From Candidatus Altiarchaeota archaeon (lineage in GTDB: Archaea; Altiarchaeota; Altiarchaeia; IMC4; SCGC-AAA252-I15): a DNA stretch of 41,081 nt. Position 1 is the stretch's first letter. Every line of letters starts with the position of its first letter. Both the position numbers and the translations under genes were made by a program. The notes beneath the pieces are model-generated. The model had not been told where the DNA came from. It was given only the letters and a program-made list of their open reading frames with translations, and searched no databases. Below are positions 21,410 to 41,081 of the stretch, in pieces. The stretch lies in assembly GCA_043822165.1 (NCBI GenBank), contig JBDRCA010000012.1, positions 1 through 41,081 of the forward strand. Reading direction: 5' to 3'.

Positions 21410-21500
21410 ACTATAGTATTACCATAATTGATTATAAAAACAAAACGTATTTTCCGTTTTTTTGGGCTCATAGTTTCTCTTGGAATCTTATTCAACCGCT

Positions 21501-21508
21501 TTTATTAA
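21501..21508 (+). promoter_or_regulatory. TATA-box-like element for the SRP RNA gene
   Basis: TTTATTAA is centred about 27 nt upstream of the predicted SRP RNA 5' end (21532), the canonical archaeal TATA-to-start distance. Confidence 0.45.
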
Positions 21509-21531
21509 GAATTCTCCCCCAATATCTTCTT

Positions 21532-21808
21532 GGTGGACTAGGCTGGGGTGCTGGCCGTACCCTGTCACTCTAAACCGGCCTTACGAGAGAGTCGAAAGCC
21601 TGCGAGGCGAGCAATCCATTGGGTTTCTGGTCTGGGTTCCGACCGTGAGGTCTCGTCTCGCTGGATTGTCTGCTCGAGGAACCGGGTCAGGTCCGGGAGG
21701 AAGCAGCCCTAACTTAAGTGGATGATGCTGGCGAGGCCGCGGGATCGAGGAAGAGTCCAGGTTAAACCGGGAGCTTACTGGTTTGCTTCACACGCGGGCG
21801 CGTCCACC
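21532..21808 (+). ncRNA. Signal recognition particle RNA (archaeal 7S RNA)
   Basis: The 5' GGTGGAC pairs with the 3' GTCCACC. The 5' domain is GGCTGGGGTGCTGGCC. The helix-8 signature GGGTCAGGTCCGGGAGGAAGCAGCCCTAA matches the conserved GGUCAGGUCCGGAAGGAAGCAGCC motif. No credible ORF: track ORF 21480..21725 is a shadow. End coordinates are +/- 5 nt. Confidence 0.85.
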
Positions 21809-21913
21809 ACAACTGTCACGCCCAGTTGACATGCGAAGGCCATCTTCGGCGACTTCGTCGCCTCGATGACCTATACTGCATTTTTCTTCTCTTAGTCCCC
21901 TTTATTGTAGTTA

Positions 21914-33788: not shown

Positions 33789-34769
33789 ATGGTCTGGGGT
33801 CCGCCGAAACTAAGAGAGCTACGTCTTTTCGAGGGCGAGAAAATCTCAATGGTGTTAACGCCGCACCCACTAGCATTCTACGGCATGCACATGCTCTGGA
33901 TTTACGTGATAGTGTTGTCTGCAATATTCTTCATAGTAAGCGATTTCATAGTCGACTACATGGGTCCAGGAGACCAAGGCTTCGCATTAAGCCTCCTGGG
34001 AAAATCAGATTCTCCCCTGGTTGCCAAGGCCCCCATAATAAACGTTTTCGCCTCCGTTCTGGATAGCATGCTAAGCGGCACAATATCCTTTTCCGTGCGC
34101 TACGGCATCGTATTCATCTGGTTTGCTCTTCTCTTCACGCCGTCTGTTGGATTGTCTGTTATGCGGGTCTCCTGGAAGTGGATGGCTTACGTGCTCTTTA
34201 CGGGTTTAGTCAGCATCGGGGTTCCCCTGGTATCTGGTTTGGATGAGAAGATGGTTTACGTGTTTGCCTCCTTGTTCGGTTTGCTGGGGATGATCGCAGT
34301 CGACCTTTACAGGCGCGGACACCACTATATCGTGACGAACTACCGGCTTATAACCGACGTGCGCTTCATCTACAATATCCGGGACGACATAAGCTACGAT
34401 AAGATTAACAATCTAGTCATGAATCAGTCCCTCTTCGGGAGATTGTTCGACTTTGGGACGCTTATGCCGTTGACTGCTTCCGGGCTCGGCATGGGTAGCG
34501 ATTTCGCGGCTGTGACAGTAGGAGCCGGGAAGCCGCTTTCTTCCGGCGTCCTTGTGGGCGGTGCCTTGACTGGGGGACGCAGCGTCAACTTTCCAAGAGA
34601 TATGTCTCAGTTTTCTCTTGTTGGGGTGCGCCACCCGAGGCAGGTTGTGGACCTGGTTTCGGAGTACGTGCACCTTGACAATGAATCTACCTACCTCAAA
34701 GACATATCCTCTGATATGAGAGAAATGCTCGGTGAAGTAAAAAAGAAGAGTAAACGTAAAAAAAGTTAG
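33789..34769 (+). CDS. Membrane protein with bacterial-PH (bPH_2 / YdbT-like) domain
   Basis: 326-aa ORF with several TM helices. HHYIVTNYRLITDVRFIYNIRDDISYDKINNLVMNQSLFGRLFDFGTL matches the bPH domain pattern. Lys-rich tail. Confidence 0.6.
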   Translation: MVWGPPKLRELRLFEGEKISMVLTPHPLAFYGMHMLWIYVIVLSAIFFIVSDFIVDYMGPGDQGFALSLLGKSDSPLVAKAPIINVFASVLDSMLSGTISFSVRYGIVFIWFALLFTPSVGLSVMRVSWKWMAYVLFTGLVSIGVPLVSGLDEKMVYVFASLFGLLGMIAVDLYRRGHHYIVTNYRLITDVRFIYNIRDDISYDKINNLVMNQSLFGRLFDFGTLMPLTASGLGMGSDFAAVTVGAGKPLSSGVLVGGALTGGRSVNFPRDMSQFSLVGVRHPRQVVDLVSEYVHLDNESTYLKDISSDMREMLGEVKKKSKRKKS

Positions 34770-35257
34770 TTTTCTTTTTTCAGTATTTTGGGCTGTATTC
34801 TCTGGCTGTTTTTCAGTATTTTGGGGTGTATCACTTGACTGAATTTTATGATTTCATGTAGGGGGTAGATTGTTACGGGATATTTACCAACCTTTCCTAG
34901 GAATTCTTCTAAGTTCTCGTGGCTTTCAGAGTTGGGTACAACAACTTGGACTATTATTTTGCCGTCTAAGGTCCTGAATATTTTTTGCGCTTCATCAAGT
35001 TTCTCTATGCTTTTTGCTAGTTTCTTGGATTCGCTTGGTGGCGTGTGGATGATTATGTAACTCATATCGAGTCCGTTTTCATTGGGGTCAAGTATTGCAG
35101 AGAATTTTTTTATTACTCCTCTGTCGATTAGTTTGTTGACGCGCGAGCAAATGGTTGTGTGGGGTATGTCCAGTTCCCCCCCAAGTTTACGCAGGCTAAT
35201 TCTAGCATCGTCTTGCATGTGTTCCATAATCTGGATGTCTAGTTCGTCAATTTTCAT
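34766..35257 (-). CDS. Lrp/AsnC-family transcriptional regulator
   Basis: 163-aa ORF. HTH MKIDELDIQIMEHMQDDARISLRKLGGELDIPHTTICSRVNKLIDRGVIKKF followed by a RAM-like alpha/beta domain. Noticeably lower GC than its neighbours. A TTTTTAAATA box lies on its strand at about 35286-35296. Confidence 0.85.
   Translation of the reverse strand: MKIDELDIQIMEHMQDDARISLRKLGGELDIPHTTICSRVNKLIDRGVIKKFSAILDPNENGLDMSYIIIHTPPSESKKLAKSIEKLDEAQKIFRTLDGKIIVQVVVPNSESHENLEEFLGKVGKYPVTIYPLHEIIKFSQVIHPKILKNSQRIQPKILKKEN
34777..34831. repeat. 33-bp tandem duplication at the 3' end of the Lrp gene
   Basis: TTTTCAGTATTTTGGGCTGTAT (34777-34798) and TTTTCAGTATTTTGGGGTGTAT (34810-34831) differ at 1 of 22 positions with a 33-nt period. 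They encode the duplicated tail HPKILKNSQR / IQPKILKKEN. Confidence 0.8.
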
Positions 35258-35300
35258 GTTAAGGTGATATTACTACGGCAGTTTCTATTTAAAAACCACA

Positions 35301-35322
35301 TTATAATATTATAATATTATAA
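35301..35322. promoter_or_regulatory. Perfect 22-bp AT palindrome TTATAATATTATAATATTATAA (two overlapping TATAATATTATA 12-mers), box 1
   Basis: Self-complementary, checked by hand. Lies just upstream of the Lrp-gene TATA-like box. Built from the octamer TTATAATA. Confidence 0.6.
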
Positions 35323-35401
35323 CTTCAATGTCACTCTAAGGCTGATACTATTAACCAATATTGGGCTGCCCACACAGTATTCTATTAGTGATTAAGACCC
35401 A

Positions 35402-35416
35402 ATGCAATTTTTGCAT
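35402..35416. promoter_or_regulatory. 15-bp palindrome ATGCAA-TTT-TTGCAT
   Basis: Perfect 6-bp inverted arms. A further TTGCAT half-site lies at 35442-35447. Confidence 0.45.
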
Positions 35417-35426
35417 ATTGTACAAT

Positions 35427-35438
35427 TATAATATTATA
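35427..35438. promoter_or_regulatory. Palindromic 12-mer TATAATATTATA, box 2
   Basis: Exact copy of the 12-mer found in boxes 1 and 3. Confidence 0.55.
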
Positions 35439-35493
35439 TTTTTGCATGTAATTCATCAATACTTATGATAAAATATTCTTTATTGTATATCGT

Positions 35494-35515
35494 ATAATTA
35501 TAATATTATAATATT
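35494..35515. promoter_or_regulatory. ATAATTATAATATTATAATATT, box 3 (contains TATAATATTATA at 35499-35510)
   Basis: Third cluster of the TTATAATA-type octamer repeat, 257 nt upstream of the giant ORF start. Confidence 0.55.
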
Positions 35516-35554
35516 GAACATAGTCCATTTTTAAAGGCTTATTGTCATACTATA

Positions 35555-35600
35555 TAATCTCATACGGGAGCCTTGTAAGGGGGTTAATCTCGTACGAGAG
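35555..35600 (+). repeat. Two 16-nt direct repeats TAATCTC(A/G)TACG(G/A)GAG, 30 nt apart, in the giant-gene leader
   Basis: 35555-35570 and 35585-35600 match at 14 of 16 positions. The second contains the perfect palindrome CTCGTACGAG. A TATATAAT box overlaps at 35551-35558. Confidence 0.6.
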
Positions 35601-35771
35601 TCTAACAAAAATGAAATATGGGTGGTTGGAAGTATCTCTAAATCAGAATTATTCTCCAGTTTCAGATATTCTGCTCTACTCACCACAAAAATCTTTCTCA
35701 AGAAAAAACCTAACCGAAACGTTCTCTACTCAAAAAAAATATTCGAATAAAATGGAGGTTGCATAAAAAAA

Positions 35772-38700
35772 ATGGAACAGAAAAAAACAGGACATATAAG
35801 AAATTGGTTTGGAAGCCATTTAACGGCACTGAACTCCCAGAAAGGAACTTTATTCAAAAGCCCGACAACACTACTAACGCTCACAATACTTATGTTACTC
35901 GTAGCCTCCATTAGCGTAAGCCATGTAATCGCTTTAATCCAGCCCACCGTCTCGACCGACAAGGCGGACTACGCGCCAGGCGAAACAGTCCTCATAAGCG
36001 GGGAAGGTTTCGCATACGATGCGCCCATGATGATGTCGATTGAAAGACCAGACGGTGAAACAGAGTCATGCGACGTAACCTCCTGTAATGCAAGATTCCT
36101 TGACGGTCCGTTAACCTCCGATGCAACCGGCTCGTTCTCAGACTACCCCTACCTCCTAAACGGAATCGAAGGCGAATACACAATAACCGCCTCAGACGGC
36201 ATAAACGATGCAACAGCAACATTCACTGACATAATAACCCCCTGCCCTACCGCGTGTACAAATGCAGGGTATGCAATAAGTTCTTGCGTACAAAGTCCAG
36301 GAGTCTGCACCACCGGTGGCGGGGTTACAGTAGTTGCAGGGAATGGTGGATGTAATCAAGCCACAGGAGGGGGATCAGGAACATGCTGCTGCGGTGCTGC
36401 AGTATCCCACGACCCGCACGCCGAGTGCGTCAACAACCAGTGCGTTGAGGTGGCGGGCTCTGGAATAGACCAGTGTTATGATACCCTAGACTGTGGAGGA
36501 ACAACAACAAGTTCAACCACAACCTCGACTACAACACTCCTAGAAACCACAACCTCGACCACAACAACTCTATACGCGAGACCCTGCGATAGCCCCACCG
36601 ACTTGTGCAGTTGGGTAACCGACGGCAACCCCGACAACGGCCTCCCGCTCGGCTCTCCCGACAACTCCGGCTGCGGATTATCATACAACACATTCTGGGC
36701 TCTCGACACCCAAGCCACCGCAACCTGCACGTTCGACGGAACTGGCCTCGGCGGCGCAGACCTCTACATCTCAATTGACAACGACGTCGTAAGCTGCACA
36801 CTCAACACCGTGAGCATATTCTCCATTTCCCATGAGGGTTGTGCGGCAGTCGACCCGCGCACCATCGGAGGAGGCGTGGGGCAGGGATACCAAGTCCCGC
36901 TCACTGGCCTCAACTCCGGCACAAACACTATCGTATGTACTGTAAACGACCGCGGCACGATGAGTCACTTCGACGCCTGCGTGATTGGAACAGAATGCAC
37001 TACTGCTGCTGACTGCGACGACAGCGACGACTGCACAACCGAATCATGCGTTGAAGGAAGCTGCACACACGGAAATGCAGTGCAAGGAACCGAATGCGGT
37101 GAGGCACGTAATTGCCCTGAAGACGATTGTAACGGATTCTTTGCTGAATTCTATCCAGATGACGGCCACGACACCTGCGACGGCCAAGGAAATTGCGTGC
37201 AATACTCCTGCGCAATGGAGGATTCATACTGCACCGACAACGATGACGCGGACGGTGTAAACACTCTAACGTGCGGTGCAGAATGCGACCAAAACAGCGA
37301 CTGCCAAGCAAAAATAGAAAGCGACACATGCTACTATGATGGGTCATGCGACCTACAAACCGATTGCGCATGCGACTATTCAAACGAACCCTGCCCCGAA
37401 GCAGGTACAATAATCGGTGACGACTGCTACTATGGAACCAGGAACTGTGTAAATTCAGAGAGTCCAGGCGGCTGTACTTTAAATGTTGATCCAATGGGCT
37501 GCTACGACACATGCGACCCAGTTTTAGGGCCAATCGACACCATAGGTCCGGTAACATCAAACCTGGATGTCGACCCCAACCCAAACAACGGTTTGTTCGA
37601 CATCACGGCGACGGCAACAGACTCCTGCACAAACATTGATAAAGCAGAATACTTTGCTGGCGACGCCGTAATCCCGTGCGGGCCAGAGGGTACAGGAATC
37701 TCGATGGATGCCTCAGACGGCAACTTCGACGCACTCATCGAAGACGTGGAAAAATACTTCTCAAGCGCAATAACAGACGGCTCAAACGTCGTTTGGGTGC
37801 GCTCGCATGATGCCGCAGGAAACTGGGGTAACTGCATACCCTTCTATTTTGAGACAGACCGGATTCCGCCGGAGCGCGTGTTCGACTATTGTATCGACGG
37901 CAACTGCCCGCCAGACGAGTATCTGATGTGCGGAAACGACGGCACATTAACTGTGACAGTTTGTGACAGCGAATCCAACCTGCAGGGCGGCGAATACTTC
38001 ATCGACATGAATATCCCTCCCCAGAATATACCCGCACCGTGGAGTGGTTTCTGGCTAAACATAACCAACAACTACATCGACAAAATCGGCTGGCACTGCT
38101 CTGATCTTACTGGTCCGTTGCATCTCGGAAACCTTTCTGAGGGGACGCACTACATAAACCAGATTCGCGGCAAAGACACCGTCGAAAACTGGGGTAAAAT
38201 CTACAACCAAAACCTCGGCATGTCGTTCATCAAGGACACGACCGAACCCGCAACTGACAAACAGCTTAACCCGCAGGACAGTGCGAGCGTCGTATGCGAC
38301 ATCACGGAAGCAAACGGCGAGACGATAACCAACGGCTGCTACTACGTCAAACAGTGGACGACGATCGTCTTAAACGCTTCTGACCCAGACCCCCAGCAGA
38401 CTGGTGAGTTCGCAGGAAACGTCATCATCAAATACATAGTGTACTGGAAGAATGATGACTGCGATAGCGCTAGTGGTTGGACAATCGACCAGCAGGGTCA
38501 AAGCAATGTAGATGAGTCAGTTACTATCACCTTGACCGAAGACAGCTGCCACCTCGTCGAGTACTGGGCTGAGGATCTCTGCGACAACGAAGAGGAGCAC
38601 CACTTCGAGCTTGACATCGTCGATACGGCGGCCCCTGAAATAACCAAAGAGGTTGTCGGCGACCAGGTGGACGGCAACGGAAACCCAATCCACAAGTACA

Positions 38701-41081
38701 TCAACGACGAAACACAAGTCATCCTTACATGCGAGGATGTGATGCCTCACCCGGTTGACGACGTAACCCTCTACTGGGAGCACTACTACGCTGCAGACGC
38801 TGACTGTGTTGTATCCGATTGGGGCACGCCTTTGGAAACCGGTTCAGAGAATAGTCAGAGTGATCCTGTCACTAAGACATTCACCGGGCTCGAGGATAGC
38901 TGCCACAAATTCGTGTACTGGTGTGAAGACGCCTTAGGCAACACTTTCGGCCCGATTGAGGAAATAGATGCGGTAGACAACACACCGCCCGAACTCAACA
39001 AGGACATAGGAACGCCGATATACGTTGACGGCGAGGAAGTCTACATCTCGCTTGCGACCCCGATAACACTTACGTGCGTGGACAGAGGAAACCACCCTGT
39101 CGACGACGTCACAATCTACTGGAGGTGGATCGTCAACGACGTGCCGCAGAGTGAGGAATCAATCAACGCCGAGAGTGTTGTCCTACACGCCAGCGAAGAC
39201 TGCTATCACACACTCGAGTACTGGTGCGAGGACTCGCTCGGAAACCTAGTCGAGAAAATCGAATACGATATAGTTGACGCAAAAGCCCCGATTTCATCTA
39301 GCGAGGTCGTCGGCCCGCAGTACGAGAATGATAGCAAGTTGTACATAGACGGCGTTACTAATGTCGCATTGTCGTGTGAAGACCAGATGCCACACCCAAG
39401 CGGCGTCAAGAAAATCGAGTACCGGTACTTCATAAACGACACAATCCTGGTTCAGGATTGGACTACCTATGCGAATCCGTTCAGTTTCCCTGAGGAGTCG
39501 CATCACACGCTAGAGTATCGTTGCATAGATAACGTTGACAACGTGGAGATCGCGAACGTCAGAGAATACTACGTCGATCATACACCACCGACGACAACGA
39601 AAATATATGGCACACCATTCTACATAAACGGTAGCTTAGAGTGGGCTAGCTCCCTCACGGAGATTACCTTAACGGCGGACGACGGCACAAGCGAGCATGC
39701 GTCTGGTGTACAGTACACCATGTATCGCGTGACTCTCGTCGACGACAGCAACTGTTACGCAAGCTGTGTTGCGGAAGGAAGCGGTGGGTTCAACACCTAT
39801 TCCGTGCCGTTCACGATCGGCGAGGATTCATGTCACCTGATTGAGTTCTACAGTGTTGACAACGTCGAGAAAACCGAGCAGACGAAGAAGCAGTGCGTAT
39901 TCATCGACAACAAGCCGCCTGAATCCTCAAGCGAGGTTTTAGGCCCACAGTATGATGACGGACAAAAGCTGTACATCGACGGCGTAACCGAGATTCAGTT
40001 GTCGTGCGAAGACCAATTGCCTCACCCCAGTGGAGTACAGTATATTGCATACAAGTACTCTGTTGACGGTAGTCCGATTCAAGACTGGACGACATACACT
40101 GGCCCGTTCAGCTTCCCTGAGGAGTCACACCATGTACTAGAGTACCGGTGCGTCGACAACGTCGACAACATGGAGACTGCGAACGTCAGAGAATACTACG
40201 TTGACCACACAAAGCCTGTGACGACAAAAACCTACGGCACTCCATACGTGACCGACGGAATCTCTGAGTGGATTACCTCACAGACACCAGTAACTCTTAC
40301 GGCCGACGACGGCAGTGAGAACCATGACAGCGGCGTAGCGACAACATACTACCGTGTGACTCTCGTCGCCGACAGCAACTGTTACACAAGCTGTGTGGAT
40401 GCAGGAACCGGTGGGTTCAACACATATTCCGTGCCGTTCACAATCGGCGAGGACTCATGTCACCTAATCGAGTTCTACAGCGTCGACCGCGTGAATAAGA
40501 CCGAGCAGACTAAGAGACAGTGCACGTTCGTCGACAACACCAAGCCCGCCACATCAAAGACTGTGAGCGAGCCTAAGGTTTCTGGCACCGGCGGAATAGA
40601 CTACTACATCACAGCGGACACTGTGATTGAGTTGTCCTGCGCCGACCAGATGCCGCACCCGGTAGATGACGTTACACTATATTGGGCGGTATACTACAAC
40701 ACAGAATGCATTGACTCGCAGTCTGAGGCTTGGAGCCTTATTGACAGCGGAAAGACCGACGGCGTAAAGACTATAACTGGCCTTTCGGACAGCTGCCACA
40801 AAATCTCGTACTTCTGCGTTGACGCCCTCGGAAACACCGAAGTCGAGCATGTCGAGATTGACGCGGTAGACAACACGCCGCCGGCATCAGTAAAGACAGT
40901 CGGCGACCCGAAGGTCGACAAAGACGACCAGTACGACTACTACATAACACAGCAGACTAACATAACAATTGATTGCAGTGACCCTGCTCCGCATCCGGTT
41001 GATGATGTTACAATCCACTGGGTTATTTCCGGCCCGGGCGGAGGCACATACAGTGATAACAGCGCTTCGGTGACGTTCACT
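35772..41081 (+). CDS. Giant Cys-rich cell-surface protein with N-terminal signal anchor, Thr linker, Cys/Asp-rich region and at least 9 Ig-like (OmpL47/Big-like) modules; 5' part only (1770 codons, no stop before the window end)
   Basis: Absent from the ORF track because it never terminates. Hand translation from ATG 35772 stays open to 41081. An in-frame TAA lies at 35748 and GGAGGT at 35754-35759, 12 nt upstream of the ATG. The span is 5310 nt, exactly 1770 codons. N-terminus: MEQKKTGHIRNWFGSHLTALNSQKGTLFKSPTTLLTLTILMLLVASISVSHVIALI. Only short shadow ORFs exist on the other strand. Confidence 0.88.
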   Translation, partial: MEQKKTGHIRNWFGSHLTALNSQKGTLFKSPTTLLTLTILMLLVASISVSHVIALIQPTVSTDKADYAPGETVLISGEGFAYDAPMMMSIERPDGETESCDVTSCNARFLDGPLTSDATGSFSDYPYLLNGIEGEYTITASDGINDATATFTDIITPCPTACTNAGYAISSCVQSPGVCTTGGGVTVVAGNGGCNQATGGGSGTCCCGAAVSHDPHAECVNNQCVEVAGSGIDQCYDTLDCGGTTTSSTTTSTTTLLETTTSTTTTLYARPCDSPTDLCSWVTDGNPDNGLPLGSPDNSGCGLSYNTFWALDTQATATCTFDGTGLGGADLYISIDNDVVSCTLNTVSIFSISHEGCAAVDPRTIGGGVGQGYQVPLTGLNSGTNTIVCTVNDRGTMSHFDACVIGTECTTAADCDDSDDCTTESCVEGSCTHGNAVQGTECGEARNCPEDDCNGFFAEFYPDDGHDTCDGQGNCVQYSCAMEDSYCTDNDDADGVNTLTCGAECDQNSDCQAKIESDTCYYDGSCDLQTDCACDYSNEPCPEAGTIIGDDCYYGTRNCVNSESPGGCTLNVDPMGCYDTCDPVLGPIDTIGPVTSNLDVDPNPNNGLFDITATATDSCTNIDKAEYFAGDAVIPCGPEGTGISMDASDGNFDALIEDVEKYFSSAITDGSNVVWVRSHDAAGNWGNCIPFYFETDRIPPERVFDYCIDGNCPPDEYLMCGNDGTLTVTVCDSESNLQGGEYFIDMNIPPQNIPAPWSGFWLNITNNYIDKIGWHCSDLTGPLHLGNLSEGTHYINQIRGKDTVENWGKIYNQNLGMSFIKDTTEPATDKQLNPQDSASVVCDITEANGETITNGCYYVKQWTTIVLNASDPDPQQTGEFAGNVIIKYIVYWKNDDCDSASGWTIDQQGQSNVDESVTITLTEDSCHLVEYWAEDLCDNEEEHHFELDIVDTAAPEITKEVVGDQVDGNGNPIHKYINDETQVILTCEDVMPHPVDDVTLYWEHYYAADADCVVSDWGTPLETGSENSQSDPVTKTFTGLEDSCHKFVYWCEDALGNTFGPIEEIDAVDNTPPELNKDIGTPIYVDGEEVYISLATPITLTCVDRGNHPVDDVTIYWRWIVNDVPQSEESINAESVVLHASEDCYHTLEYWCEDSLGNLVEKIEYDIVDAKAPISSSEVVGPQYENDSKLYIDGVTNVALSCEDQMPHPSGVKKIEYRYFINDTILVQDWTTYANPFSFPEESHHTLEYRCIDNVDNVEIANVREYYVDHTPPTTTKIYGTPFYINGSLEWASSLTEITLTADDGTSEHASGVQYTMYRVTLVDDSNCYASCVAEGSGGFNTYSVPFTIGEDSCHLIEFYSVDNVEKTEQTKKQCVFIDNKPPESSSEVLGPQYDDGQKLYIDGVTEIQLSCEDQLPHPSGVQYIAYKYSVDGSPIQDWTTYTGPFSFPEESHHVLEYRCVDNVDNMETANVREYYVDHTKPVTTKTYGTPYVTDGISEWITSQTPVTLTADDGSENHDSGVATTYYRVTLVADSNCYTSCVDAGTGGFNTYSVPFTIGEDSCHLIEFYSVDRVNKTEQTKRQCTFVDNTKPATSKTVSEPKVSGTGGIDYYITADTVIELSCADQMPHPVDDVTLYWAVYYNTECIDSQSEAWSLIDSGKTDGVKTITGLSDSCHKISYFCVDALGNTEVEHVEIDAVDNTPPASVKTVGDPKVDKDDQYDYYITQQTNITIDCSDPAPHPVDDVTIHWVISGPGGGTYSDNSASVTFT
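39301..40560 (+). repeat. Tandem duplication of a 630-nt (210-codon) two-module unit inside the giant gene
   Basis: Copy 1 (39301-39930) and copy 2 (39931-40560) align colinearly. Examples: SEVVGPQYENDSKLYIDGVT.. versus SEVLGPQYDDGQKLYIDGVT.. and ..GGFNTYSVPFTIGEDSCHLIEFYSVD.. in both. Long identical nucleotide runs include GCGAACGTCAGAGAATACTACGT and TATTCCGTGCCGTTCAC. Confidence 0.85.

Follow-up and report, generated by a model that had tools for sequence, protein, structure and literature searches.

A probable AT-rich divergent control region with palindromic boxes between an Lrp-type regulator gene and a giant surface-protein gene in a Candidatus Altiarchaeota genome

The spacer at positions 35258-35771 (514 bp) of contig JBDRCA010000012.1, from the Candidatus Altiarchaeota archaeon assembly GCA_043822165.1, is well founded as the divergent control region of a gene for an Lrp-type regulator and a gene for a giant surface protein. 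It separates the minus-strand Lrp gene (34766-35257) from a plus-strand giant open reading frame (ORF) starting at 35772, and is most likely an ordinary two-way promoter/operator region. The initial annotation had likewise taken it for the regulator's own divergent control region, shared with the giant gene, and this is upheld here. For its three palindromic boxes, which consist of adenine and thymine (AT) only, we favour a reading in which they are putative regulator-bound sites flanking two divergent promoters, with a probability of about 0.45. The identity of the regulator, an Lrp TATA box with a score of 10.7, the specificity of the boxes to this locus, the first rank of the spacer among the gaps of the genome and a mirror-like layout all speak for this reading, as does a paralogue of the regulator on contig C76 that is likewise divergent from a signal-peptide gene. 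The window, that is, the whole stretch of 41,081 nt that was analysed, is an entire contig (C12) of an assembly of 1.57 Mb in 164 contigs, which is 83% complete and has a guanine-plus-cytosine (GC) content of 50.6%, as opposed to 28.8% in the spacer.

The spacer, its boxes and the adjacent regulator

All elements listed in the initial annotation were found in place on direct reading of the sequence. The features that carry the argument are the following.

34766-35257, minus strand: Lrp/AsnC (FFRP) family regulator gene, 163 amino acids (Pfam, phmmer, AlphaFold, Foldseek)
35286-35295, minus strand: Lrp TATA box TTTTTAAATA, 29-38 nt upstream of the ATG and 5 nt from box 1
35301-35322: box 1, TTATAATATTATAATATTATAA, a perfect 22-bp palindrome in which TATAATAT is repeated 2.75 times in tandem; the Lrp TATA box lies 5 nt downstream
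35402-35416: ATGCAAtttTTGCAT (ATGCAA-TTT-TTGCAT), containing the core TGCAA-WWW-TTGCA of the canonical FFRP site form
35408-35456 and 35480-35528, plus strand: two copies of a 49-nt direct repeat, 78% identical and offset by 72 nt, which carry boxes 2 and 3
35427-35438: box 2, a single 12-mer TATAATATTATA, followed by TTTTTGCAT
35498-35515: box 3, TTATAATATTATAATATT; with box 1, at a distance of 175 nt, it makes up a perfect 18-nt inverted repeat that is equally a direct one
35528-35535, plus strand: TTTTTAAA, 12 nt past box 3 and oriented towards the giant gene, a candidate TATA box
35754-35759, plus strand: Shine-Dalgarno sequence GGAGGT, 12 nt before the ATG of the giant gene
35772-41081, plus strand: giant secreted/surface protein gene, at least 1770 codons, with an ATG start and open at the contig end

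The boxes, along with several other palindromes, occupy the first 260 bp of the spacer. Copies of the 12-mer TATAATATTATA start at 35302, 35310, 35427 and 35499; only one further copy exists in the 1.57-Mb assembly, and about 0.08 copies would be expected genome-wide from independent bases. The concern that the 12-mer might be common throughout the genome was thus not borne out. A 12-mer multiplicity of 4 was reached in none of 1000 dinucleotide shuffles of the spacer. Perfect inverted repeats (arm of at least 5, spacer of at most 5) numbered 29, compared to 6.7 ± 3.3 in 500 shuffles, an about fourfold excess that is inflated by the nested palindromes of the boxes. Among 474 non-coding gaps of at least 120 bp in a crude ORF map of the genome, the spacer ranks first for both palindromic sites and 10-mer multiplicity. 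Part of this enrichment reflects local slippage and duplication rather than independent events, given the tandem 8-mer structure and the duplication at a 72-nt offset. The boxes have the form (TATAATAT)n, and any array of this 8-mer is palindromic because the unit is complementary to a rotation of itself.

The neighbouring gene proved to encode a genuine full-length Lrp/AsnC-type regulator by four approaches, i.e., Pfam helix-turn-helix (HTH) models, alignment to FL11, the AlphaFold fold and Foldseek. Pfam assigned the HTH_AsnC-type domain PF13404 (1.8e-9; 37.7 bits at a cut-off of 27) and HTH_24 (PF13412), and phmmer aligned residues 3-127 with FL11/PH1519 (2cyy, 2e1c; E 7e-15). In the AlphaFold model, whose mean predicted local distance difference test (pLDDT) score is only 64, three helices at residues 5-45 form the HTH and are followed by a C-terminal beta-alpha-beta-beta-alpha-beta unit (strands 63-71, 90-95, 100-108 and 128-132; helices 74-85 and 114-123). 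The top 40 Foldseek matches in the PDB were all Lrp/AsnC-fold entries, aligned over about 140 columns. The Pfam RAM-domain model PF01037 gave the regulator no score. The protein is a member of a subfamily widely distributed in this order, whose recognition loop, PHTT, is invariant and is also present in the C76 paralogue (47% identity). Its closest homologues, 53-55% identical, lie outside its own genus, the best anywhere being 55%, and a metagenome scan with the protein gave no match. At 39.8%, the GC content of the gene is at the 1.3rd percentile among the genes of the genome. Near its 3' end (34770-34840), the gene contains a direct repeat, TTTTCAGTATTTTGGG, whose two copies, spaced by about 33 nt, specify a PKILK motif that recurs in the C-terminal tail (…HPKILKNSQRIQPKILKKEN); most homologues have no such tail.

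We then located promoter elements with a signal derived from the genome itself. In 528 upstream regions, AT content peaked at -35 to -25 from start codons, and an expectation-maximization (EM) matrix TWTTTAWW was fitted. The most enriched hexamers were TATTTA, TATATA, ATTTAA, TAAATA, TTTATA and TTTAAA, and TTTTTA was the most frequent among the enriched ones. On either strand of the spacer, the top match to the matrix was GTTTTTAAATAG on the minus strand, whose score of 10.7 corresponds to about the 90th percentile of best upstream scores. The element next to box 1 that had been described as TATA-like, TTTTTAAATA, is thus the strongest promoter-like site of the spacer and lies 5 nt from the box. 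On the other side, TTTTTAAA scores below 6 with the T-rich matrix and is a candidate TATA box by its hexamers TTTTTA, TTTTAA and TTTAAA, which are among the most promoter-enriched in the genome. Together, TTTAAAAA-N5-box1 ... box3-N12-TTTTTAAA make up a large imperfect mirror. The genome matrix gave no strong plus-strand TATA match within 200 nt of the giant gene's ATG. The GGAGGT sequence before this ATG implies a leadered messenger RNA (mRNA), and, together with the lack of a near TATA box, it suggests that transcription of the giant gene probably begins near box 3 and includes a leader of some 210-240 nt.

In the favoured reading, boxes 1 and 3, just inside the two outward-facing TATA-like elements, would be upstream protein-binding sites of two divergent promoters. 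The left promoter would drive lrp and provide autoregulation. Transcripts from the right one would begin with the leader of about 210-240 nt, at whose end stand the giant gene's Shine-Dalgarno sequence and ATG. Bridging or looping of the DNA could be aided by box 2 and by the TGCAA-TTT-TTGCA site, both located between the promoters. The adjacent Lrp would be the most likely binder, by analogy with BarR-type divergent units, and its recognition loop predicts an AT-rich half-site.

Regulator-binding sites or slippage-derived TATA-like DNA

By position, the boxes suit an Lrp/FFRP operator array of the Ss-LrpB or BarR type, all of them being situated 44-258 nt ahead of the lrp start codon, within the spacer that lrp and the giant gene have in common. 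Several other observations weigh against binding of the regulator to such an array. The known FFRP sites of archaea follow the pattern abcdeWWWEDCBA (PMC2715240). The boxes are even-centred (spacer of 0, 2 or 4) rather than odd-centred 13/15-bp sites, and the best FFRP-form 13-mers inside them (ATAATattATAAT) keep only four of five symmetric pairs. The TATAATATTATA boxes thus lack the odd-centred geometry of archaeal Lrp sites described so far. Nor are they regularly spaced: the box centres (35311.5, 35432.5 and 35506.5) are separated first by 121 bp (11.5 helical turns of 10.5 bp) and then by 74 bp (7.0 turns), which is irregular and much wider than in known Lrp arrays, for which three or more similar sites would be expected at even distances on one helix face within about 100-170 bp. 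Recurrence was assessed in the upstream regions of 36 PHTT-loop homologues with 35-54% identity. The box, with up to two mismatches, occurred in 9 of these 36 regions, compared to 6.5 ± 2.2 in shuffles, which reached the observed count in 12-17% of trials; it is thus not enriched. Motif discovery in the same 36 regions yielded no common palindrome, only TATA-like k-mers. No orthologous locus was found in 40 relatives or in the metagenome collection, so that the locus comes without a phylogenetic footprint. Slippage and one local duplication can, on the sequence, account for the box copy number. Moreover, the 22-mer of box 1 is frequent in unrelated AT-rich metagenome contigs, and the exact box copy on contig C143 and the near-copy on C158 sit roughly at the TATA position, 25-36 and 35-46 nt upstream of start codons, respectively. 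Finally, the specificity of the regulator is uncertain, because Cys replaces the nearly invariant Phe of the subfamily at FL11 position 39.

The specificity was approached through the FL11 contact pattern of residues and bases. FL11-aligned residues 24, 34, 35, 36, 37 and 39 of the regulator are Leu24, Pro34, His35, Thr36, Thr37 and Cys39, for which the residue-to-base code of PMC2715240 predicts T-T-x-A-A, with Cys39 lying outside the code. This predicted T(a)T(b)xA(d)A(e) resembles the AT-rich TTAAAWWWTTTAA predicted for Ss-Lrp (PMC2715240); it fits neither TGCAA nor a clean box half-site. The box half-sites TTATA/TATAA are AT-only, and their register is not canonical. An AT-only target for the regulator is nonetheless plausible from its recognition residues.

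The sole perfect FFRP-form site of the spacer is TGCAAtttTTGCA (35403-35415, TGCAA-TTT-TTGCA), located between boxes 1 and 2. The initial annotation had compared the surrounding ATGCAAtttTTGCAT with Ss-LrpB sites, and it does match exactly the 13-bp core of the Ss-LrpB optimum, TTGCAA[AAT/ATT]TTGCAA (PMC2715240). An extra TTGCAT half-site is present at 35442-35447. In a regulon search, TGCAAwwwTTGCA occurred only once in the genome, and degenerate box matches were few and scattered. In Ss-LrpB, Ser36 and Arg39 are the residues that read G(b) and C(c) (PMC2715240); recognition of TGCAA would thus need these two, whereas the regulator has Thr36 and Cys39.

These points bring in a different explanation, in which the boxes are AT-only, TATA-like low-complexity DNA produced by 8-mer slippage and a 72-bp duplication and the link to Lrp is coincidental. 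At most, they would then act as additional or bidirectional binding sites for TATA-binding protein (TBP), or as easily melted AT-rich promoter DNA that binds chromatin proteins. The period-8 tandem structure and the 49-nt duplicated block fit this explanation, as does the absence of box enrichment upstream of homologous regulators. The box hexamers TTATAA, ATATTA and ATTATA are enriched 5-6-fold at -60 to -15 of genes, and the only other exact copy of the 12-mer (C143:2278) lies at -36 to -25 of an ATG-initiated frame. A near-copy, TATAATATTTTA, on contig C158 is found 34-36 nt from both of two divergent start codons, one of which belongs to another HTH_AsnC-type gene. Outside the locus, 6 of 10 exact or one-mismatch copies are intergenic. 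The 22-mer gave at least 120 matches in metagenome contigs; in the 80 loci that were fetched, median GC was 27% and none stood beside an Lrp relative.

On the other hand, the boxes score below 6 with the dominant TATA matrix, yet a canonical lrp TATA box adjoins box 1. Box 1 (44-65 nt) and box 3 (257-274 nt) are outside the usual TATA window of -25 to -35 from the nearest start codons. No other spacer of this 50.6% GC genome has gathered such repeats, and the mirror placement relative to two TATA-like elements looks organised. On balance, we consider it unlikely, though a serious contender, that slippage and coincidence explain the boxes. The option raised in the initial annotation that they serve as palindromic TATA-like elements of bidirectional promoters is a live rival. 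Binding of Lrp to the boxes in a DNA-wrapping array is plausible, though geometry, spacing and cross-genome recurrence give it no support. The further steps proposed earlier are purely inferential: DNA wrapping, cooperativity of binding, and on/off control of giant-gene expression.

Two candidate markers were dropped in the course of this comparison. The 22-mer was excluded as a lineage marker, being common in unrelated AT-rich metagenome contigs. An 11-mer, ATAATATTGAA, found only in the Lrp spacers of C12 and C76, was set aside as evidence, as about 0.3 chance matches are expected by our own estimate.

Some related loci were observed along the way. At C76:18495-19200, the paralogous Lrp gene is also divergent from a signal-peptide gene (MNLNRKIIVGFMLILMTGFASAQ…), and the 181-bp AT-rich spacer between them carries a 9-bp inverted repeat, ATTCAATAT…ATATTGAAT. 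On the same contig, a tandem sequence that nearly copies the box motif, TATAATGTTATAATGTTATA, occupies positions 795-816, where one ORF ends and 68 nt remain before the next begins. Another HTH_AsnC-type gene is preceded by a spacer of 443 bp and 24% GC (C161:19055-19497) with many AAATTAAATT-type repeats, a second very AT-rich regulator-associated spacer in the genome. At two other loci, L247 (G038:C52) and L011 (G030:C4), a perfect 14-bp palindrome, TATAATATATTATA, is located 12-25 nt upstream of the ATG of an Lrp homologue. It is box-like, not identical to the boxes, and its place between a TATA-like element and the start codon is typical of an autorepression operator.

The leader of the giant gene and the genomic setting

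The remaining features of the spacer are two short palindromes among the boxes and several elements in or near the presumed leader.

35355-35364: CCAATATTGG, 10-bp palindrome with one other genomic copy, inside a coding region
35417-35426: ATTGTACAAT, 10-bp palindrome that fills the gap from the TGCAA site to box 2
35550-35559, plus strand: CTATATAATC, second candidate TATA element, matrix score 7.0, 14 nt after TTTTTAAA
35555-35603, plus strand: two 19-nt repeats, TAATCTCATACGGGAGCCT and TAATCTCGTACGAGAGTCT, offset by 30 nt, a motif found only here in the genome
35611-35766, plus strand: 51-codon ATG ORF in the leader, probably not a gene

The two 19-nt repeats, which share a AATCTCRTACGRGAG core, include a perfect 12-bp palindrome, TCTCGTACGAGA (35588-35599), and can pair as a 42-nt hairpin (35558-35599). 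This palindrome could be bound by a different factor or form a stem-loop at the 5' end of the giant gene's mRNA. Another possibility is that the right half of the spacer (about 35540-35771) is not a mere leader and encodes a box-driven small non-coding RNA or a short peptide of 51-74 codons. The hairpin, built from repeats specific to this locus, and the 51-codon ORF, which ends 5 nt before the giant ATG, would suit it. However, the ORF has no Shine-Dalgarno sequence, no Pfam match and no homologue in 20 genomes of the family. A structured RNA in the spacer was rejected, since no Rfam match was obtained at E<=1 and folding z-scores were close to zero (-0.39, -0.03 and -0.13, both strands). We therefore judge this possibility improbable.

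The giant protein itself has no Pfam match, and a single domain (amino acids 268-406) is common to other large proteins of relatives. No recognisable Lrp match (tblastn, E<=1e-5) was detected in the fetched loci around proteins sharing this domain.

The layout also invites comparison with phase variation. In Escherichia coli, the fim invertible switch and pap phase variation both involve Lrp as an accessory factor. By analogy, the locus might be an archaeal phase-variable switch, operating by recombination or slippage, through which expression of the giant protein would vary in the population, with the low-GC Lrp as accessory factor or sensor; this idea is very improbable. The two specific mechanisms, inversion of the 175-bp segment between the 18-nt repeats or gain and loss of 8-bp units that alters promoter geometry, we hold to be extremely improbable. 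The 18-nt repeats are 100% identical in inverted orientation, 175 nt apart, tandem 8-mers are prone to slippage, and the role of Lrp at fim and pap and a giant exported protein as target would be in keeping with a switch. But the arms are themselves palindromic, so that the inverted repeat is equally a direct one, and each box holds only 2-3 repeat units. No strong promoter lies inside the 175-bp segment, both good TATA-like elements being outside it, and the window has no recombinase gene. The recombinases found in the genome were two tyrosine recombinases, both on other contigs, and no serine recombinase.

With regard to its setting, the spacer had been described as the longest intergenic region. 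This holds within the window, as the other gap of about 500 bp (21410-21913) is filled by signal recognition particle (SRP) RNA at 21531-21809, so that 35258-35771 is the longest empty spacer there. Genome-wide, the spacer is one of about 25 ORF-free gaps of at least 500 bp, in a count based on the crude ORF map, which takes ribosomal RNA genes and unlisted open-ended ORFs for gaps too. The Lrp gene and spacer together (34766-35771) make up 1 kb of DNA with 34% GC, flanked by genes of about 50-52% GC, and this block may be an acquired or fast-evolving cassette. Its spacer DNA had no real match among 40 relatives. The Lrp gene has a divergent paralogue on contig C76 and the flanking bPH-domain gene has one on C14, and the bPH gene on the left flank is only 36-39% identical to the bPH genes of relatives. 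The MCM protein encoded in the window shows 61-68% identity to Candidatus Altiarchaeales/Altiarchaeota metagenome-assembled genomes, with a top match of 85% to an uncultured archaeon.

An AT-rich palindromic stretch in such an island could also be read as a replication origin or as the remnant or border of a mobile element. Its base composition, its inverted repeats and a G-run (GGGGG, 35579-35583) would be compatible with this, as would the 1-kb island of 34% GC and the divergent paralogy of the Lrp and flanking bPH-domain genes. No orc1/cdc6 gene was adjacent among the Pfam-scanned ORFs, however, MCM is 21 kb away, and cumulative GC skew does not turn at the site. The window contains no integrase or transposase gene, and no target-site duplication was seen, although no search was aimed at one. 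Lacking supporting genes and a skew change, both readings were rejected; their probability is close to negligible.

Comparison with known systems

At present, the locus stands as a sound annotation of a divergent control region in which the link between regulator and sites is putative. If Lrp does bind, the favoured reading would mean that an Lrp-family protein controls a giant surface/adhesion protein and not amino-acid metabolism, with the example coming from Altiarchaeota, a lineage without a genetic system. It would also define a DNA site for a widespread, uncharacterised Lrp subfamily with an invariant PHTT loop. Phase variation, if true, would make the locus an archaeal analogue of the Lrp-assisted fim/pap adhesin switches.

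The closest known arrangement is that of BarR-type Lrp proteins, which bind three 15-bp sites in the spacer that separates their own gene from a divergent target, and which regulate the two genes (PMC10201364). The BarR sites are odd-centred 15-bp semi-palindromes, e.g., TTGTACTTTTTACAA, and the bound fragment of 274 bp comprises the whole spacer and the starts of both genes (PMC10201364). Similarly, an Lrp-family gene is here divergent from its presumed target across a shared AT-rich spacer with three palindromic sites; BarR is octameric and controls both promoters (PMC10201364). In contrast to BarR, the boxes described here are even-centred, AT-only palindromes of 12-22 bp, 74-121 bp apart in a 514-bp spacer, and their binding is putative. 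The presumed target is a giant surface protein, whereas that of BarR is an amino-acid enzyme.

Ss-LrpB of Sulfolobus solfataricus binds its own operator at three regularly spaced boxes, with about 100 bp of DNA being wrapped (PMC1802622). It resembles the present case in its autoregulatory setting, with three boxes upstream of the regulator's promoter, and in the exact 13-bp core TGCAA-WWW-TTGCA of its optimum, which is carried by 35402-35416 (PMC2715240, PMC1802622). Here, however, there is only one such site, box spacing is irregular and the regulator has Thr36/Cys39. Among solved structures, FL11 (PH1519) of Pyrococcus sp. OT3 (2cyy/2e1c) is the nearest in sequence, and it has the same two-domain fold. 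Identity is only about 28%, and the FL11 loop AEST-H reads TGAAA, whereas our regulator belongs to the PHTT-loop subfamily.

Archaeal promoters with a transcription factor B recognition element (BRE) and a TATA box, including palindromic divergent TATA boxes, share with the boxes their AT-only, TATA-like and symmetric character. Unlike such promoters, the three boxes are clustered far from start codons, beside separate canonical TTTTTAAA-type elements. In E. coli, the pap and fim systems combine a long spacer, flanked by regulator and adhesin genes in divergent orientation, with several Lrp-related sites at distances of about 100 bp and with a short segment enclosed by inverted repeats. The long divergent spacer, the multiple sites and the inverted repeats recur here, but the boxes hold no GATC/Dam sites, no recombinase gene is nearby and the transcription apparatus is archaeal. 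The kind of system is thus a known one, and what sets it apart is its giant exported target, its AT-only even-centred boxes and its low-GC regulator cassette.

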